A DNA stretch of 32,000 nt from Caldivirga maquilingensis IC-167 (GTDB lineage Archaea > Thermoproteota > Thermoprotei > Thermoproteales > Thermocladiaceae): contig NC_009954.1 in the NCBI RefSeq assembly GCF_000018305.1, forward strand, positions 1,560,001 to 1,592,000. The letters run 5' to 3'. The notes beneath the pieces are model-generated. The model was not told where the DNA came from. It saw nothing but the letters and a program-made list of their open reading frames with translations, and did no database searches. Shown in pieces: positions 8,100 to 30,198 of this stretch (within the stretch, counting starts at the first letter, position 1; each line of letters begins with the position of its first letter). Made by a program: the position numbers and the translations under genes.

Positions 8100-9395
8100 A
8101 TGAGCGCCAGGGAGGTTTCGTTGAGAAGGGTGCTTAATTTCATGGAGCTGGTGGCATTAGGCTACTCCGACGTATCATCAACATACTACTTCTCACTTGG
8201 CGTAATAGCACTATACTCCGGTTCATCATTACCCGTCACCATGATGCTTGGCTCTATTCCACTATGGGTTGCTGGGTTAACGTACAGTGAATTAGCTAAA
8301 GTAAGCCCTGAGGTTGGTGGTGCATACTATTACGTGAACCTTGGCCTAGGCCGCTTTGGAGGCTTTATTGCAGGTTGGTTACTTGGCTTTGATCAAATAC
8401 TAATGATGGCCTACGGCGCCTTAGGGTTCGCGAATTATCTACTAACGGCATTAATTGGGTTAAACCACGGTGGATTCATCATTACGCTTACTTCACTGGC
8501 GATTATTTGGTTTCTGGCTATTTTAAACATAATTGGCATTAAGTTATCAGCTAGATTAAACCTAGTACTAGTTATGATCGATATCATTGGTATCTTAATA
8601 CTAACCACCGCTGGGTTTTATAGATTAATGCATATGCATGAGTCAATTAATGCAGTGAGTCTAAGCATTGCACCAGTGGGTTTAGCATATGCCTTGAGGG
8701 GTTACATTGGTATTGATGTAATAGCTCAAGCAGCAGGGGAGGCTATGGAGCCGAGTCGCAATGTACCTAAATCAATAGTAACCATATGCACCCTCTCAAC
8801 TGTTGTTGCAATACTAGTTTCAACATTAGCCGTCTACACGGGTGGCGTCAAGGTAATGATGATGCATCCTGAAGACCCACTCTCAGCACTTGCAGTGAAC
8901 CTAATCGGCTTCAATGCGTTGAGCATATACATATCGGTATCCATAGCCCTAGTGATGCTTCTAAGCGTTAACTCCGGGATAGTGGACTTCTCCAGGGGCC
9001 TCTATAGGATGAGTATTGATAGACTCCTACACAAATCAATATCAAGTGTTCATTCAAGGTTCAAGACTCCATTTGCATCAATAATAGTGGCTTCAATTAC
9101 ATCATCATTATTCGTAATACCTAACGATGTTGAATTAATAGTAGGCTCATACGGCATAGCCTCACTAGTGGCGTACACATTAGCCTTACTATCACTAATA
9201 AGACTTAGGGATAAGTCACCACTAATGGTAATTGGATTAATGGCATTAATTACGGCTATACTGTTAACGCTAATATTCAAACCATACTATGCGATACCAG
9301 TGTCACTGTGGTTCGCCATAGGGCTTATACTACTAGCCATGACAAGTAAACGGCTAAGACTAATTAAGTTAACCCCACATAGGCCTCATGAATAA
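8100..9395 (+). CDS. Amino acid/polyamine (APC superfamily) permease
   Basis: 431 aa with about 12 TM helices. The N-terminal region (LALGYSDVSSTYYFSLGVIA...SELAKVSPEVGGAYYYV) matches the APC signature pattern (E..s..P..GG.y.y). Confidence 0.8.
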   Translation: MSAREVSLRRVLNFMELVALGYSDVSSTYYFSLGVIALYSGSSLPVTMMLGSIPLWVAGLTYSELAKVSPEVGGAYYYVNLGLGRFGGFIAGWLLGFDQILMMAYGALGFANYLLTALIGLNHGGFIITLTSLAIIWFLAILNIIGIKLSARLNLVLVMIDIIGILILTTAGFYRLMHMHESINAVSLSIAPVGLAYALRGYIGIDVIAQAAGEAMEPSRNVPKSIVTICTLSTVVAILVSTLAVYTGGVKVMMMHPEDPLSALAVNLIGFNALSIYISVSIALVMLLSVNSGIVDFSRGLYRMSIDRLLHKSISSVHSRFKTPFASIIVASITSSLFVIPNDVELIVGSYGIASLVAYTLALLSLIRLRDKSPLMVIGLMALITAILLTLIFKPYYAIPVSLWFAIGLILLAMTSKRLRLIKLTPHRPHE

Positions 9396-23087: not shown

Positions 23088-23382
23088 CTTTCTAATCCCT
23101 TTTGGGATTTTCATGAAAAAGCCATAATTGTTACAGGGAAAAAGGAAAATAACTTTCTAATCCCTTTTGGGATTTTCGGATGCATTCCCCTACTCCATAA
23201 CAACCGTGAGGGGTTTGATTAATCTTTCTAATCCCTCTTGGGATTTTCTTAATTATTAAGTCTTTATCCTTAATTTTTTAATTCGAATTCCCTTTCTAAT
23301 CCCTCTTGGGATTTTCTGGATTGATTTAAGCGGTAACGGTTACAATGCAGTATTCGTCTTTCTAATCCCTTTTGGGATTTTC
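23088..23382 (-). CRISPR. CRISPR array 1: five 25-bp repeats and four spacers, transcribed on the minus strand away from the leader at 23383
   Basis: Repeats CTTTCTAATCCC[T/C]TTTGGGATTTTC at 23088, 23153, 23224, 23292 and 23358. Spacers are 40, 46, 43 and 41 bp. The reverse complement ends in ATTAGAAAG, resembling the ATTGAAAG 8-nt crRNA handle source of crenarchaeal repeats, which sets the orientation. Confidence 0.95.
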
Positions 23383-23726: not shown

Positions 23727-23751
23727 ATTTCTAATCCCTCTTGGGATTTTC
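23727..23751 (-). CRISPR. Orphan CRISPR repeat followed by an approximately 40-bp leader-like fragment
   Basis: ATTTCTAATCCCTCTTGGGATTTTC has one mismatch to the repeat. The next bases, taaactattggttttaagatttttaagtttttct, resemble the repeat-proximal leader tgagctatcagcttttttaggttttttaagtttttct. Confidence 0.8.
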
Positions 23752-24067
23752 TAAACTATTGGTTTTAAGATTTTTAAGTTTTTCTCTATTAGTTGTTCAC
23801 AAGGGTAGGCATCAATTAGCTCAGGTTGTGGCGTATGCGTTGGCTGTTGAGGAGACGCTTAAGGTTACTGTTGATGAGGCGGTAATGATTAGTGTTAATG
23901 GTGGTTTAACTAGGTTTAAGATAACCCCATGGTTAAGGAATTGGATTATTAATGAGTTAGGTAGTTTAAGGAGTATGATCAATAGGCAGGAGTTACCGAA
24001 GCCTACTATTGATAAGGCTAAGTGCTCAGCATGCTTCTATAGGAGTATTTGCTTAAAGTACGGTTAA
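23741..24067 (+). pseudogene. cas4: 5'-truncated cas4 remnant; only the C-terminal part looks like Cas4
   Basis: HQLAQVVAYALAVEETL matches the RecB-nuclease Q-h-x-x-Y motif, and the C-terminal KCSACFYRSIC matches the Cas4 C-x2-C-x5-C Fe-S cysteines. The N-terminal roughly 20 codons of the ORF are encoded by the orphan repeat and leader-like DNA. The N-terminal Cys and the D..ExK nuclease motifs are absent. Confidence 0.6.
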
Positions 24068-25032: not shown

Positions 25033-26394
25033 TTAATCCACGCAGCAGCTCATCTTAGTGATGTCTCTATAGAAGGCTTGTGCAGCTAACTTCAGTGACT
25101 CAGCCATTGTCGGGAAGACGTGTATTGTGTCTATTAGGTCATTGATTGTTGCCTTAAGCCTAATGGCTAATGCGGCTTCATTTATGAATTCCGCCGCGTT
25201 CTCACCCATGGCGTGGACGCCAATTATCCTCCCACTGCCCTTCTCAATAATCATTTTAACTAAACCATTAGTGTCACCTAGTATGTGTGCCTTAGCCACA
25301 TTATCCATGAAGACAACCCTATAATCCACATCAATACCCATGGCAACAGCCTCAGCAACAGTTAACCCAACCCTAGCTAAATTAGGCTTAGTGAATATGG
25401 CTTGAGGCACAGCAAGCATGTCAATTCTCCTATGGGCATTAAGCACAGCGTTATCAACAGCAACCACACCCTGCTTACCGGCCAGGGCCTCAAGCATGGG
25501 TCCGCCTAATACATCACCAGCCGCGTAAACCCTTGGGTTTGTGGTCCTTAACTCATCATCAACCAGGATACCGCCTTTCTCACTTAGTTTAATACCAGCC
25601 TCATTAAGGTTAAGGTCAACATTAGGCCTCCTACCCATGGCTACAAGGATTTCATCAGCCTCCAACTCACCCTTATCAGTCACAACAACCTTACCCTCAA
25701 CACCCTGCTTAACCTCCAGCACCCTAGTACCTGTAAGCACCACTACGCCACTCTGCTCAAGCACCTGCCTAATGCCCAGTGATATTTCAGGTTCCCAATC
25801 CGGTATGAGTACTTGACTCCTCTGAACCACGGCTACATCAACACCAAGCATCCTATACATTTGCGCAAACTCCAATGCCTGCGCCCTACCACCGAGCACT
25901 ATCAGTGACCCAATTCTACGCTGTGGGTTAAGGGCCTCCACATTTGTCCAGTAACCCACCTCCCTTAATCCCTTTATGTTGGGTATGTTTGGTGATGAAC
26001 CCGTGGCCACTATGAACCTCTCACCCTCAATAACCCTACCATTAACCTTAACTGAATTAGGGGAGGTGAAGTACGCCCTACCCTCAATCAACTCCACGTC
26101 ATACTTAGCTAACACATCCTCGTACTTAAGCTTCCTAAGCTTATTCACAATATCCAGTTCATGCTTAAAGGCGCTCATGTAATCCCAGTTAAGGCTTGGT
26201 TCAAAACCCTTCGCGTAACCGTAAAGTTCACCAATCCTGAGGACTGTCTTTGATGGTACGCAACCCACATTAACGCACGTCCCACCCAATGGTCCATAAC
26301 CAATCAATGTGGGTTTAATACCGAGTTCATTAGCCCTTATCAATGCTGCGAAGCCAGCTGCCCCATAACCAATAATAACCAGTTCCTTAGCCAT
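25033..26394 (-). CDS. merA: Mercuric reductase (core enzyme without an NmerA domain)
   Basis: The FAD motif IIGYGAAG, the redox-active GGTCVNVGCVPSK that is characteristic of MerA, and the C-terminal vicinal cysteine pair (KMSCCVD) that distinguishes MerA from other pyridine nucleotide-disulfide oxidoreductases. Confidence 0.85.
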   Translation of the reverse strand: MAKELVIIGYGAAGFAALIRANELGIKPTLIGYGPLGGTCVNVGCVPSKTVLRIGELYGYAKGFEPSLNWDYMSAFKHELDIVNKLRKLKYEDVLAKYDVELIEGRAYFTSPNSVKVNGRVIEGERFIVATGSSPNIPNIKGLREVGYWTNVEALNPQRRIGSLIVLGGRAQALEFAQMYRMLGVDVAVVQRSQVLIPDWEPEISLGIRQVLEQSGVVVLTGTRVLEVKQGVEGKVVVTDKGELEADEILVAMGRRPNVDLNLNEAGIKLSEKGGILVDDELRTTNPRVYAAGDVLGGPMLEALAGKQGVVAVDNAVLNAHRRIDMLAVPQAIFTKPNLARVGLTVAEAVAMGIDVDYRVVFMDNVAKAHILGDTNGLVKMIIEKGSGRIIGVHAMGENAAEFINEAALAIRLKATINDLIDTIHVFPTMAESLKLAAQAFYRDITKMSCCVD

Positions 26395-26471
26395 AAAACC
26401 ACCACGGATTCATTACTGGGAATAAGGATGAGTCATTTTGATTCACAGTTAATCACTCACCGTGAGGTGAT

Positions 26472-26639
26472 TTAAACACCCCCATGCCTCTGTTCAAAGG
26501 CATTAGCGCAGTGCTCGCAACAGAAGTAATGCCTCTCACCGTTTATTACACGCACATAGGCTCTCTCCAAGGTTATAGGCATACCGCAGTTCTCGCACCT
26601 TAATCCACCCTGTGTACTCGTATTATTCCTCAGCCTCAT
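26472..26639 (-). CDS. merH: TRASH-domain metallochaperone-like protein (MerH-like), 55 aa, absent from the ORF track
   Basis: Hand translation gives MRLRNNTSTQGGLRCENCGMPITLERAYVRVINGERHYFCCEHCANAFEQRHGGV. C15-x2-C18-x21-C40-x3-C44 fits the TRASH pattern C-x2-C-x19-22-C-x3-C. The gene lies immediately upstream of merA on the same strand, with an ATTTAAATA TATA box about 25 nt upstream. Confidence 0.65.
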   Translation of the reverse strand: MRLRNNTSTQGGLRCENCGMPITLERAYVRVINGERHYFCCEHCANAFEQRHGGV

Positions 26640-26659
26640 AACGGGCACTCAGCCTCAGT

Positions 26660-26720
26660 ATTTAAATTATTTTTTCTTCATATGAAAATTTATTCATATG
26701 TTAAAAATCTTTAAAAGCTA
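26660..26720. promoter_or_regulatory. Divergent mer promoter region: two TATA boxes flanking an 8-bp inverted repeat
   Basis: ATTTAAATA (26660-26668) serves the minus-strand merH-merA genes and TTTAAAAG (26710-26717) serves the plus-strand membrane gene. Between them lies CATATGAA-N6-TTCATATG (26679..26700). Confidence 0.45.
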
Positions 26721-26738
26721 AGCAATTACTCAACGGTG

Positions 26739-27260
26739 ATGCTGAGGCCAGGTAACCAAACCTTCAGTGAGATTCAAACCGTGGCCAAGGTTCTGGTAAC
26801 GGTCATTGGTAACCCAAGGTACACGATTGTTTTCATAGCCTCCTTCCTACTACTCTTTACAGCATTCTACTACCTGTATACCACGGGGCATGTGGGTTAC
26901 ATCCTCCTAAGAAACTACTACGTATACTACGACTTGGCTTCATCATTAGTCGTATCCCTATTGAACAGTATGGTTATGGTAATGGGTCTTTACGGTTTGA
27001 GACTTAGATTAAGTGGCTTAAGTATACCTTCCATAGCTTTAGGATTAGCGCCAACCGCATGCTGCGCCCCAACCGTGGCAGCATTAGTAACCTCAGTGGT
27101 GGCTTCAATGGCTGGTTCATCAACAGCATTACTAACCGTGGGTAAGCTTCAGGGTGTATTAGGCGTCTATAACCCAATCTTCGTGGCATTATCCATAGCA
27201 ATAGCTGTTGTGGGGCTTAATAATGTGGCAAAGAACCTAGTGTGCTCATGCAGTAGGTGA
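26739..27260 (+). CDS. Four-TM membrane protein with an intramembrane vicinal cysteine pair (PTACCAPT) and a C-terminal CSC; candidate Hg(II) or thiol-disulfide transporter
   Basis: 174-aa ORF (track start GTG 26736, ATG 26739). The CC pair flanked by prolines sits in a predicted TM helix, and the second cysteine cluster VCSCSR lies at the C-terminus. The gene is divergent from merH-merA. Confidence 0.55.
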   Translation: MLRPGNQTFSEIQTVAKVLVTVIGNPRYTIVFIASFLLLFTAFYYLYTTGHVGYILLRNYYVYYDLASSLVVSLLNSMVMVMGLYGLRLRLSGLSIPSIALGLAPTACCAPTVAALVTSVVASMAGSSTALLTVGKLQGVLGVYNPIFVALSIAIAVVGLNNVAKNLVCSCSR

Positions 27261-27817
27261 GAGGAATGAGGACGCGTACTGTAATCCTAGTAATCGCATC
27301 TATAGTAGTCCTTTCAACAGTAGTATACTTATTCACTAGACCAACAAGGACTACAGGTGTTTCAGTGGGTTATTATGCACCAGACTCTAGCTTTGAGTTA
27401 ATCAATGGCACAAGCGTTAAACTATATGACTTCCTAAACCATGGTCACTACGTTCTAGTTTACTTCGTATCCACCTGGTGCAGTGACTGCGCCATTGGGT
27501 TAATAATGCTTAGCCATAGGCTGGAGCCCATACTACAGTCACATAATGTGATTGTCCTAGTTCTTGAGAATTATAATGACTTAGGTTACCAGGGTGAACC
27601 CGTTAATGAGTTTGTTAGCTACTTTGCAGGTAATTCATCAAAGTACTTTACCGTGGGTATTGCAAGCCTTAAGATGACTGAGACCTATAATCCAGAGGGT
27701 TACCCAGAAATCTACTATTTAATAGCACCCAATGGTAAGATAATTTACGAGAACACGGACCTAGCCGGCACCTATAATTCCTTAATCAGCATCGTAAATG
27801 GGCTTGGGAACTCATAA
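27257..27817 (+). CDS. Membrane-anchored TlpA/ResA-like thioredoxin-fold protein
   Basis: An N-terminal TM anchor is followed by YAPDSSFELINGTSVKLYDFLNHGHYVLVYFVSTWCSDC (W-C-x-x-C redoxin motif). GTGA overlap with the upstream membrane gene. Confidence 0.7.
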   Translation: MRGMRTRTVILVIASIVVLSTVVYLFTRPTRTTGVSVGYYAPDSSFELINGTSVKLYDFLNHGHYVLVYFVSTWCSDCAIGLIMLSHRLEPILQSHNVIVLVLENYNDLGYQGEPVNEFVSYFAGNSSKYFTVGIASLKMTETYNPEGYPEIYYLIAPNGKIIYENTDLAGTYNSLISIVNGLGNS

Positions 27818-28174
27818 GCCACGATTTAAATTAACACTCACCTTCTCCTCATTAATTACATCACACGCTAATATCGACCTACTATTCCTCATGGCATGCT
27901 CAATGGCTAGTTTCACAATACTAGCCACGGCATCATTTGCTATTGAGTAGTATGAGTACTTACCCCTCCTCTCCACCTTAACCACACCGCAATTCCTTAA
28001 GCAAGCCAAGTGATGGGAGATTAGGGATTGAGACCTCCCAAGAGCCTTAGTAATCTCCTGAACAGAGGATGAACCATGATTAAGGAGAAAAAGCACAATC
28101 TCAAGCCTACTCCTATCTGATAATGCGGTAAAGAACATCTCCAACGCCATCAACAACGGCTCCCTCCCACTCAT
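27812..28174 (-). CDS. ArsR/SmtB-family metalloregulator, candidate regulator of the mer cluster
   Basis: ALSDRSRLEIVLFLL...SVQEITKALGRSQSLISHHLACLRNCGVV is the canonical ArsR HTH. Cysteines occur in and after the recognition helix (C-x3-C) plus one C-terminal Cys. Confidence 0.8.
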   Translation of the reverse strand: MSGREPLLMALEMFFTALSDRSRLEIVLFLLNHGSSSVQEITKALGRSQSLISHHLACLRNCGVVKVERRGKYSYYSIANDAVASIVKLAIEHAMRNSRSILACDVINEEKVSVNLNRGL

Positions 28175-28508: not shown

Positions 28509-29276
28509 GAAAATCCCAAAAGGGATTAGAAAGCCGCAGACGTTGCTCAGCTTGTTTAACAGTTTAGCGAAGCCGCGAAAATCCCAAAAGGGATTAGAAA
28601 GGATAAGGCCACGGTTTCAAGTACATTGAGGAATCGTTACAATGAAAATCCCAAAAGGGATTAGAAAGTGTATGATAATTCCACCTTAGTGCTAGTTCCC
28701 CATGAACCTAGAAAATCCCAAAAGGGATTAGAAAGGGCGTATAATTGAGTACCGTTACTGAACATGAACTTGAGGAAAATCCCCAAAAGGGATTAGAAAG
28801 TGTAGTAACGTGGAAATAAAGGTACACTTGTAGCAGGTAGAAAATCCCAAAAGGGATTAGAAAGTTGTGGTCGTAGAAGTCGAAACCTAACCCTATTAAG
28901 TCTCGAAAATCCCAAGAGGGATTAGAAAGTTTACAAAATCCTCAAATCCCTCAAATTTTTCCATAGGGAATCAAGGAAAATCCCAAGAGGGATTAGAAAG
29001 TAATTACAGCTGTGAACTCAGGAAACATAAAATATATATCACTGAAAATCCCAAGAGGGATTAGAAAGGCTTATGATGATTGCCGTTGATGGTAAGACAT
29101 AATTAATCACTGAAAATCCCAAGAGGGATTAGAAAGTTATCACTACTCCAATGCAATGAACCCAGCAAGTCTTCATACTCATGAAAATCCCAAGAGGGAT
29201 TAGAAAGATAACTTATGCTAGGTATTTCAATTACCCAATGGTCATGCCTATGTAAATCCCAAAAGGAATTAGAAGG
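28509..29276 (+). CRISPR. CRISPR array 2: 12 repeats (the last degenerate) and 11 spacers, transcribed on the plus strand
   Basis: Repeats GAAAATCCCAA[A/G]AGGGATTAGAAAG at 28509, 28577, 28644, 28711, 28775 (26 bp, extra C), 28840, 28905, 28976, 29044, 29112 and 29183. The degenerate terminal repeat GTAAATCCCAAAAGGAATTAGAAGG is at 29252. Spacers are 43, 42, 42, 39, 39, 40, 46, 43, 43, 46 and 44 bp. Confidence 0.95.
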
Positions 29277-29301
29277 GTATTAAATCGGCTAGGATGTTGG
29301 T

Positions 29302-30198
29302 TTATGATTGTAGTGTGTTTATTAGTTTCTGGATCCATTCTCTGGGTTTTATGATGCCTTCTTCGTTAGTTACTAGACCTCTTTCTATTAGGTCGTTTAC
29401 GTCTATTCCCATTTGCTTTAAGATGTTTTGCAGTGTTCCGTTGCCTATTATTTTTAATGCCTCTATGTATTTTTCCTGTATTGTTAGTGGTAGTTTCGGT
29501 AATTCCACTATGCTTTTGAATGATTCATGCATGTAGATTATTTTCCAAGCACCGGTTAATTGGGCTACTAGGGCTATATACGCTGTTTCTGGTTTATAGC
29601 CTGCTGTGGCATTGACTACTACCTTGTACCCACTACGTGTTTTGTTTATTATTAGTCTGGCGAATTTATTCACTAGTTCTATTAATCCTTCGTTAAACCA
29701 GTTTATGTCTCTTCCAAGATCCTTTACGACTATTGGTTCATCAACCTTAGGTTTAATGTTGATTCCAGCCTTCTGCATGAATTCATTTCCGTAACGGTCT
29801 AGGTACTCCTTGATTACCTGTGCGCAGAATTTCCCCGTGCCTGTATCCGTGGGGTATAGGTAAATCTCCAACTCCTCAAACTGCCTGTATGGGAAATCCA
29901 GGAGAAACCTTATCAATGTATTTAACTCTGCACTAGTCCCCTCTGGGTTATTCCTCACGAACTCTATAGTCTTCTCGAAAAACGAATCACCCCTATGCCT
30001 CATGTGTTCAATCTTCTCCTGAAGCGGATCATCAGGGCCTAGTTTACTCAGTTTTCCCTCCTTTAACTTTGCCTGTATCTCTTCAGGAATCCCCGTGAGG
30101 TCTATGGTACTCACACCCCTTTCTATGTCATTTCTTATAGTAGCTTCCATGTTAGATAGTATGCTTGTACCTACGGTGCTTAGAACCGCTAACTTCAC
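29302..30198 (-). CDS. CARF-domain protein (Cas_APE2256-like) with a probable C-terminal winged-helix domain
   Basis: The MKLAVLSTVGTSILSN N-terminus, SAELNTL and VVVNATAGYKPE (the CARF N-x-T-G-G-x-K-like motif). The C-terminal roughly 60 aa (IEALKIIGNGTLQNILKQMGIDVNDLIERGLV) look like an HTH. The GTG start is preceded by an ATAAATTAAA TATA box at about 25 nt. Confidence 0.6.
   Translation of the reverse strand: MKLAVLSTVGTSILSNMEATIRNDIERGVSTIDLTGIPEEIQAKLKEGKLSKLGPDDPLQEKIEHMRHRGDSFFEKTIEFVRNNPEGTSAELNTLIRFLLDFPYRQFEELEIYLYPTDTGTGKFCAQVIKEYLDRYGNEFMQKAGINIKPKVDEPIVVKDLGRDINWFNEGLIELVNKFARLIINKTRSGYKVVVNATAGYKPETAYIALVAQLTGAWKIIYMHESFKSIVELPKLPLTIQEKYIEALKIIGNGTLQNILKQMGIDVNDLIERGLVTNEEGIIKPREWIQKLINTLQS

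Follow-up and report, generated by a model that had tools for sequence, protein, structure and literature searches.

Caldivirga maquilingensis IC-167 carries a mercury-resistance (mer) cluster in which the mercuric reductase gene merA, a merH-like gene and the gene of an ArsR-type regulator are accompanied by two further genes. One encodes a membrane protein with a vicinal cysteine pair (CC) inside a transmembrane (TM) helix, and the other a membrane-anchored extracytoplasmic protein with a thioredoxin (Trx) fold, here called the redoxin. We analyzed the cluster within a stretch of 32,000 nucleotides (the window; NC_009954.1, positions 1,560,001 to 1,592,000), whose numbering is used throughout for this genome. 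Based on sequence evidence, archaea, which were thought to lack a mercury-uptake system, probably have one in this pair. We assign a probability of about 0.6 to the reading that the two proteins work together in the mer operon as a module for the uptake and hand-off of Hg(II), corresponding in archaea to MerT/MerP. The two genes are:

26736..27260, + strand: membrane protein with four TM helices and the CC motif, 174 aa; PTACCAPT; C-terminal CSCSR
27257..27817, + strand: redoxin, a membrane-anchored extracytoplasmic Trx-fold protein, 186 aa; N-terminal anchor; W74-C75-S-D-C78; cis-Pro-equivalent P149

Boyd and Barkay found mer transporters to be absent from all Archaea except for merP in Ferroplasma, and comparative surveys treat archaeal mer operons as minimal (PMC3466566). 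A 2021 expansion catalogued MerA in Micrarchaeota and Parvarchaeota, with accessory genes and transporters not analyzed (PMC8261052). In the mer literature that we searched, no archaeal transporter was reported beyond merP in Ferroplasma, nothing relevant linked a redoxin or TlpA with mer, and this gene pair was not described. What appears to be new here is a probable transporter of the MerT/MerF-like kind whose architecture and type of partner are both novel, neither family having a curated model.

Recurrence of the gene pair with merA

The two genes are joined by the GTGA overlap that had been noticed when the sequence was first read, in which the GTG start of the redoxin gene overlaps the TGA stop of the membrane protein gene (AGGTGAGAGG). 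We surveyed one genome per species using the redoxin alignment, with its family-specific motifs, as the probe, and kept 80 loci out of 165 relatives. Loci were annotated with our own hidden Markov models (HMMs), a flavoprotein within 3 kb being called MerA if it scored more than 200 bits on the MerA HMM and carried a C-terminal CC; 68 loci had enough flanking sequence to be informative. Such a survey of co-occurrence with merA had been proposed by the initial annotation, and it revealed MerA within 3 kb in 63 of the 68 informative loci (93%). The CC protein lies within 60 nt of the redoxin in 72 of 80 loci, and 45 loci share the co-directional order CC protein, redoxin, ArsR, MerA. Operon linkage is to bona fide merA and extends across distant phyla, and all eight flavoproteins that were sampled score above the TIGR02053 cutoff (511–585 bits).

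Gaps to ArsR measure 0–10 nt, the distance from redoxin to MerA is about 300–430 nt, and the pair overlaps or abuts genes of the merA operon. Twelve protein-anchored look-ups placed the redoxin gene next to the membrane protein gene wherever the neighbor could be read (one locus, L010, is too short) and merA adjacent in five independent contexts. Because the CC pair is invariant in all 88 members of the membrane protein family and the two genes accompany merA in dozens of unrelated genomes, the arrangement and motifs of the cluster are not a product of chance.

Among archaea, the 80 loci come from Micrarchaeota (36), Parvarchaeota (10, including ARMAN-4 and ARMAN-5), Nanoarchaeota (7), Marsarchaeota (4), Thermocladium (3), other Thermoproteota (2), Woesearchaeota (1), Thaumarchaeota (1) and unclassified archaea (3). 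Bacterial hosts are Actinomycetota (12, described as acidophilic and including isolates of Conexibacter and Actinocrispum) and one unclassified bacterium. The initial annotation had remarked that uptake components were undefined in crenarchaeal mer systems. The module, however, is not confined to Crenarchaeota, and most of its occurrences are in DPANN archaea. Gene order differs by lineage: Caldivirga-like loci are divergent and include a gene for a TRASH-domain protein, DPANN loci are co-directional and lack it, and Actinomycetota show other orders. Since the order varies while the gene content persists, selection appears to act on the set, which is the signature of a functional unit.

These loci also bear on the possibility that the pair acts on a different thiophilic metal or on a metalloid, or has a general role in stress, and merely shares an ArsR-controlled island with merA. 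Such a role would explain why the pair occurs with ArsR and without a nearby merA at L006/L066, L071, L028 and L096, and why L007 has an HxlR regulator together with a low-molecular-weight phosphatase/ArsC-like gene upstream. Set against this are the adjacency of merA in 93% of informative loci, which span several phyla and differ in gene order, and the overlapping or abutting position of the pair in the merA operon, and we regard the possibility as very improbable.

Several loci show variant layouts. On a metagenomic contig (L014, 668-1648, + strand), the redoxin is fused to an N-terminal DUF3105 and is encoded upstream, not downstream, of the CC protein. One relative of the cassette (L008, 5461-5694, − strand, and L009) encodes an additional 77-aa HMA-domain protein with a CSRC motif between the TRASH gene and merA, which would give this operon two cytoplasmic metal-binding proteins. 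In Actinocrispum wychmicini (L100), a second redoxin/SCO1-SenC-like gene (8595-9200, + strand) follows the CC protein–redoxin pair, and a MerR-family regulator is encoded after merA besides an ArsR. The complete genome of Ca. Micrarchaeum sp. A_DKE (989,838 bp; L069, 7029-10003) keeps the order CC protein, redoxin, MerA despite its reduced size, with a divergent HxlR-type regulator replacing ArsR; the same HxlR context is found in L007.

The CC membrane protein family

The membrane protein had been described as a four-TM protein with a CC pair inside a helix and a cysteine cluster at its C-terminus, and its sequence agrees: there are four hydrophobic segments, and cysteines occur only at positions 109, 110, 170 and 172, the first two within PTACCAPT (residues 106-113 of 174) and the others as C170-x-C172 in the CSCSR tail. 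No Pfam or NCBIfam family model matched the 174-aa protein, and word-seeded homolog searches with it and with the redoxin each returned the Caldivirga protein alone. An exhaustive HMMER scan of 1.84 billion representatives yielded 17 matches to the membrane protein, nearly all of 165–188 aa, whereas no more than 7 members came from a word-seeded search that used the family alignment. One HMMER match, P0010 (2,940 aa, 15 short stretches), was excluded as a match to repetitive hydrophobic sequence. With the members added from the genome survey the family comprises 88 unique sequences, and judging from their conservation the CC protein is a member of a real, unannotated family.

C109 and C110 are invariant (88/88), and a proline follows the pair by 2–5 residues in 86 of 88 members, the window copy reading CCAP. 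P106 is kept in 80 members and C172 in 85, and within a T-G-x-I-Q-G loop G136 and Q139 are each kept in 84; the C-terminal tail holds at least two cysteines in 82, most often as a vicinal CC. Mean counts of Lys plus Arg (K+R) across the 88 members are high at the N-terminus (3.2), in loop 2-3 (3.1) and in the C-terminal tail (4.1), and low in loop 1-2 (0.7) and loop 3-4 (0.6). This bias indicates an N-in/C-in topology with both termini in the cytoplasm, which positions the CC pair within TM3 and the C-terminal cysteines on the cytoplasmic side. An AF2 model (pLDDT 79, pTM 0.71) has four long helices and breaks a helix exactly at the CC pair (helices 97-110 and 112-126). The family profile found nothing among PDB sequences at E up to 10, and a Foldseek search of the model against the PDB returned none below E = 2, only generic helical bundles. 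In a plasmid collection, no homolog of the actinobacterial CC protein was found.

The initial annotation held that this protein does not look like MerT, MerF or MerC. That view stands for MerC, which was ruled out as a relative together with MerE (hhalign, 1.9% and 0.3%), but not for MerT and MerF, to which the C-terminal half bears a remote resemblance. The 88-member family matched MerT with an hhalign probability of 84.4% (P = 7e-6, 62 columns) and MerF with one of 76% (P = 2.3e-5, 68 columns, running through the C-terminal CC), against shallow alignments of 5 and 7 sequences, respectively, that were built from annotated plasmid genes. With only 16 family members the MerT comparison gave 52%, and reversed-sequence controls stayed at or below 14%. 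In these alignments the family CC falls on Cys24/25 of MerT and on the first CC of MerF, the Y-x-P at the start of TM4 on the P-Y-R-P of MerT, and the C-terminal Cys on MerT Cys76 and on the C-terminal CC of MerF. TM3, TM4 and the tail are thus a probable remote MerT/MerF-type hairpin that follows two extra helices.

Searches with family models point in the same direction. In the scans of all 88 members, which considered the best 25 families by member count, Pfam MerT was the top family (7 members, best E = 6.6e-5), and the NCBIfam models matched were MerT (5 members, best E = 2.3e-4), MerT/CopZ (3) and MerTP (2). Individual scans at E up to 10 covered 10, 9 and 7 members. A check against MerT, MerC, MerF and DsbD_2 had been suggested at the outset; sub-threshold MerT emerged as the sole recurring metal- or thiol-related match, and DsbD (PF02683), DsbD_2 (PF13386), CcdA, DsbB and VKOR were absent from the matches listed for the window protein and its 88 relatives.

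Like MerF (two TM helices, PF11431) and MerT (three, PF02411), the family contains a hairpin whose first helix carries a vicinal CC and then a proline, whose loop faces outside and whose second cysteine pair is cytoplasmic after the second helix. Its gene lies within the mer operon beside merA, and the moderate profile-profile match spans exactly this hairpin. Unlike them, it has two additional N-terminal TM helices, the motif CC-[TS]-[SP]-x2-P in place of the CC-x2-P of the MerT/MerF sequences used, a conserved T-G-x-I-Q-G outside loop and a Trx-fold partner instead of the HMA-fold MerP, and no member reaches a curated cutoff.

The main alternative for the pair, also considered in the initial annotation, is a CcdA/ResA-like reducing-equivalent shuttle, in which the membrane protein relays electrons from a cytoplasmic thioredoxin to the redoxin. 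The latter would keep surface thiols reduced, or repair Hg-damaged or oxidized extracytoplasmic cysteines under mercury stress. The membrane protein does have cysteines on both faces, as a relay would. However, CcdA/DsbD proteins are recognized by six TM helices with one redox cysteine in each of two of them, and here there are four helices, with the vicinal TM3 pair as the sole intramembrane cysteines. A vicinal disulfide is strained and would be unusual for a relay. Among the matches listed for the roughly 100 members scanned, none was to DsbD, DsbD_2, DsbB or VKOR. The operon partners are ArsR and MerA instead of cytochrome-maturation genes; with regard to cytochrome c maturation or Dsb linkage, these two were the conserved neighbors, in a survey that included no search aimed at ccm or res genes. 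A CcdA-like protein with no link to merA was the outcome that the initial annotation had held against itself. Because no CcdA/DsbD match was listed and MerA is close by in 63 of 68 informative loci, the family does not have this character. Together with the redoxin evidence below, we consider a shuttle unlikely.

The redoxin and a proposed route for Hg(II)

The description of the partner as an extracytoplasmic W-C-S-D-C protein of the Trx fold also held: the window copy has the WCSDC motif and an N-terminal anchor, and its profile is ResA-like. An N-terminal anchor is present in all 86 complete redoxins, with K+R of 3.5 on its N-terminal side and 1.1 on the other; 81 of these anchors are oriented N-in and 5 are tied, and we therefore place the redoxin domain outside the cell. 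WCxxC is found in 87 of 88 members. The best solved match of the family profile is Bacillus subtilis ResA (E = 2e-16). The window redoxin itself scores 30.5 bits on the ResA model NF002854 (cutoff 170) and 23.7 on PF00578 (cutoff 26), and its matches to the NCBIfam ResA and TlpA models are weak.

In common with the ResA/TlpA proteins that work with CcdA, the redoxin is an N-terminally anchored extracytoplasmic Trx fold with WCxxC, paired with a cysteine-bearing membrane protein. It differs in the residue aligned to the ResA cis-Pro, which in the 83 redoxins that could be scored by HMM alignment is Leu in 73, Pro in 8, Ile in 1 and Thr in 1. By this mapping to ResA the cis-Pro is absent from 75 of 83 family members. 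The ResA score is below cutoff, the membrane partner lacks CcdA/DsbD similarity, and the operon context is merA and ArsR. In human thioredoxin, the cis-Pro prevents metal binding by the CxxC thiolates (PMC2665069). As the redoxins keep the CxxC while most have lost the aligned cis-Pro, a metal-binding role fits better than a catalytic redox role. For the shuttle, this evidence cuts both ways: ResA is the partner of CcdA, and the window redoxin retains P149, but the 75 partners without cis-Pro lack the residue that redox-active Trx folds use for substrate handling (PMC2665069).

The family also carries a nearly invariant insertion relative to ResA, the family-specific segment E-x-Y-x-D-L-G (E-N-Y-N-D-L-G at window residues 104-110). 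This E-x-Y-[ND]-D-L-G insert could be part of a metal site or a partner interface. An invariant N-G was considered as a glycosylation sequon and dropped, as the same N-G occurs in ResA.

With MerP, the periplasmic HMA-fold protein, the redoxin would share the role of an extracytoplasmic C-x-x-C protein encoded beside the transporter gene, although the folds are unrelated (thioredoxin/TlpA-like versus ferredoxin-like HMA) and the redoxin is membrane-anchored where MerP is soluble. Sco1/SenC offers a precedent, being an extracytoplasmic Trx-fold protein with a membrane anchor whose role is to bind a thiophilic metal and not to catalyze disulfide exchange, and the redoxin profile has weak matches to Sco1/YpmQ (E of about 3e-3 to 5e-3). 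Sco proteins use CxxxC and a distal His, whereas the redoxin family has CxxC, with no third ligand identified.

The initial annotation had suggested a MerP-like hand-off of Hg(II) for the redoxin, and the two computational checks that it named, the family-model searches and the survey for merA, both favored its reading. Based on these features we infer a route for Hg(II) through the proposed uptake module. Outside the cell, Hg(II) would be bound by the C-x-x-C of the anchored Trx-fold protein and would then pass to the vicinal Cys109-Cys110 at the TM3 helix break of the membrane protein. From the CC pair it would move to the cytoplasmic C-terminal cysteines C170 and C172. The next acceptors would be the TRASH protein and/or MerA, the latter through its C-terminal Cys450-Cys451, and MerA would reduce the ion to volatile Hg(0). 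Because this MerA lacks an NmerA domain, a separate cytoplasmic acceptor such as the TRASH protein fits the scheme. The three-cysteine ArsR-type regulator probably represses the divergent promoters until it binds Hg(II), its presumed effector.

A hybrid of the two accounts would keep the membrane protein as a MerT/MerF-like Hg(II) transporter and make the redoxin a dedicated reductase or thiol exchanger instead of a MerP analogue. The redoxin would then keep the outward part of the transporter reduced, or strip Hg(II) from external thiol ligands, in oxidizing acidic habitats. This hybrid draws on the same linkage and MerT/MerF similarity as the uptake module, and the ResA-like ancestry of the partner, the translational coupling, which suggests a fixed stoichiometry, and the second redoxin/SCO1-like gene in Actinocrispum would all suit it. 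The loss of cis-Pro in most members argues against classical redox catalysis. We find the hybrid doubtful, although sequence alone does not separate it from the uptake module.

Several points weigh against the uptake module. Every MerT-type match is below its curated cutoff, and the window protein itself matches no curated model; the hhalign probabilities are moderate and come from shallow MerT and MerF alignments; and hydropathy and the AF2 model give four TM helices where MerT has three and MerF two. Five of the 68 informative loci have the pair with no merA within about 8 kb. On the redoxin side, the closest solved relative, ResA, is a true disulfide reductase, and the window copy departs from most of its family in keeping the cis-Pro (P149). 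For cells that have no periplasm, Hg(II) import has also been called an unfavorable design (bioRxiv 10.1101/2022.07.06.499078).

A fuller version of the uptake module, to which we give slightly less than even odds, describes the missing archaeal Hg(II) uptake system as a four-TM protein derived from MerT/MerF together with a Trx-fold protein that was once a redox enzyme and, having lost its cis-Pro, became a chaperone for Hg(II) outside the cell. The two would travel with ArsR and MerA as a four-gene cassette that is exchanged among acidophilic archaea and Actinomycetota and that even DPANN genomes of about 1 Mb retain. If the pair is an uptake module, many archaeal mer operons gain a transport arm, including those of Micrarchaeota and Parvarchaeota with catalogued merA, and the picture of how the operon was assembled changes. 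The MerT/MerF hairpin would have an earlier origin and a wider distribution than previously assumed, and the redoxin would add a case of a Trx fold turned to metal handling through cis-Pro loss. A widespread archaeal mer transport module would surprise specialists, and two unannotated families could be given names in several hundred genomes.

Core mer genes, the divergent promoter and the CRISPR surroundings

The remaining features of the cluster are:

25033..26394, − strand: merA, 453 aa; TIGR02053 576.4 bits (cutoff 454.45); active site CVNVGC with redox-active C40/C45; C-terminal SCCVD (C450-C451)
26472..26648, − strand: TRASH-domain protein, merH-like cytoplasmic metal chaperone; CxxC...CCxxC; PF24273 31.6 bits (cutoff 27); YHS and zf-FCS matches
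26649..26735, no strand: divergent promoter and candidate operator, 87 bp; TATA-like boxes flank two TTCATATG copies
27812..28174, − strand: ArsR/SmtB-type metalloregulator, 120 aa; NF033788 84.4 bits (cutoff 55); PF01022; C58-x3-C62 in HHLACLRNCG, and C104

The initial annotation had drawn the merH-like (TRASH) gene and merA as divergent from the membrane protein gene, with an ArsR/SmtB regulator bearing a C-x3-C closing the cluster. All five open reading frames are in place, and the regulator has the C58-x3-C62 and scores above the NF033788 cutoff. The merA product exceeds the TIGR02053 equivalog cutoff and has both the redox CxxxxC and the C-terminal vicinal CC of MerA. Its alignment to the NmerA-containing model NF010311 (560 aa) begins only at model position 99, so that we read it as a core mercuric reductase without an NmerA domain. 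The TRASH gene probably starts at the ATG at 26639 (MRLRNN...) rather than at the mechanically called GTG at 26648, because homologs in the related loci L002, L004 and L008 start at the equivalent Met and a TATA-like box lies 22–28 nt upstream.

The merR-merH-merA-merI operon of Sulfolobus solfataricus is similar in three respects: its MerA is a core enzyme that lacks NmerA, a gene for a TRASH-domain chaperone lies upstream of merA, and the repressor is of the ArsR type (PMC3466566). It differs in that the published descriptions that we found mention no CC membrane protein or redoxin. In Caldivirga, it is the CC protein–redoxin pair that takes the divergent position, and the regulator gene lies downstream of the pair in convergent orientation.

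Within the divergent promoter, a TATA-like TTTAAAT at 26661-26667 faces merH-merA and a TTTAAAA at 26710-26716 the CC gene, both about 20–28 nt upstream of their start codons. An analysis of direct and inverted repeats identified the TTCATATG copies at 26677-26684 and 26693-26700. The CATATGAA...TTCATATG pair and the TTTAAAA are kept in L002 and L004 and partly in L008. This repeat region is a candidate operator that the ArsR-type regulator may bind. A sigma-70 promoter scan did not rise above shuffled expectation, in a model that is irrelevant to an archaeon. The 120-aa regulator has both a curated model match above cutoff and candidate sensing cysteines, and the motif H-x-L-x-C-x3-C occurs in 34 of 55 unique ArsRs of the cassette. 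It is a candidate archaeal MerR-type repressor that would respond to Hg(II); the mer genes of S. solfataricus are under an ArsR-type repressor (PMC3466566).

The cassette has CRISPR-Cas elements on both sides. Directly beyond the second of two CRISPR arrays lies a gene for a Cas_APE2256/CARF-type protein (29302-30198, − strand), whose match to the CRISPR ring nuclease model NF040951 is sub-threshold (84.6 bits, cutoff 600). A 108-aa open reading frame at 23741-24067 (+ strand) matches the C-terminal part of Cas4 only (model positions 96-179 of 180) and therefore looks like a truncated cas4; a lone CRISPR repeat at about 23727-23751 abuts its start. Together with cas6 and this cas4 fragment, the mer cassette sits between the arrays at 23088-23382 (+ strand, 5 repeats) and 28509-29280 (− strand, 12 repeats), which run in opposite directions and have a common 25-nt repeat (Rfam CRISPR-DR17). 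Arrays with a shared repeat on either side of the cassette suggest either an insertion of the mer genes into a CRISPR-Cas locus or a rearrangement of such a locus around them.

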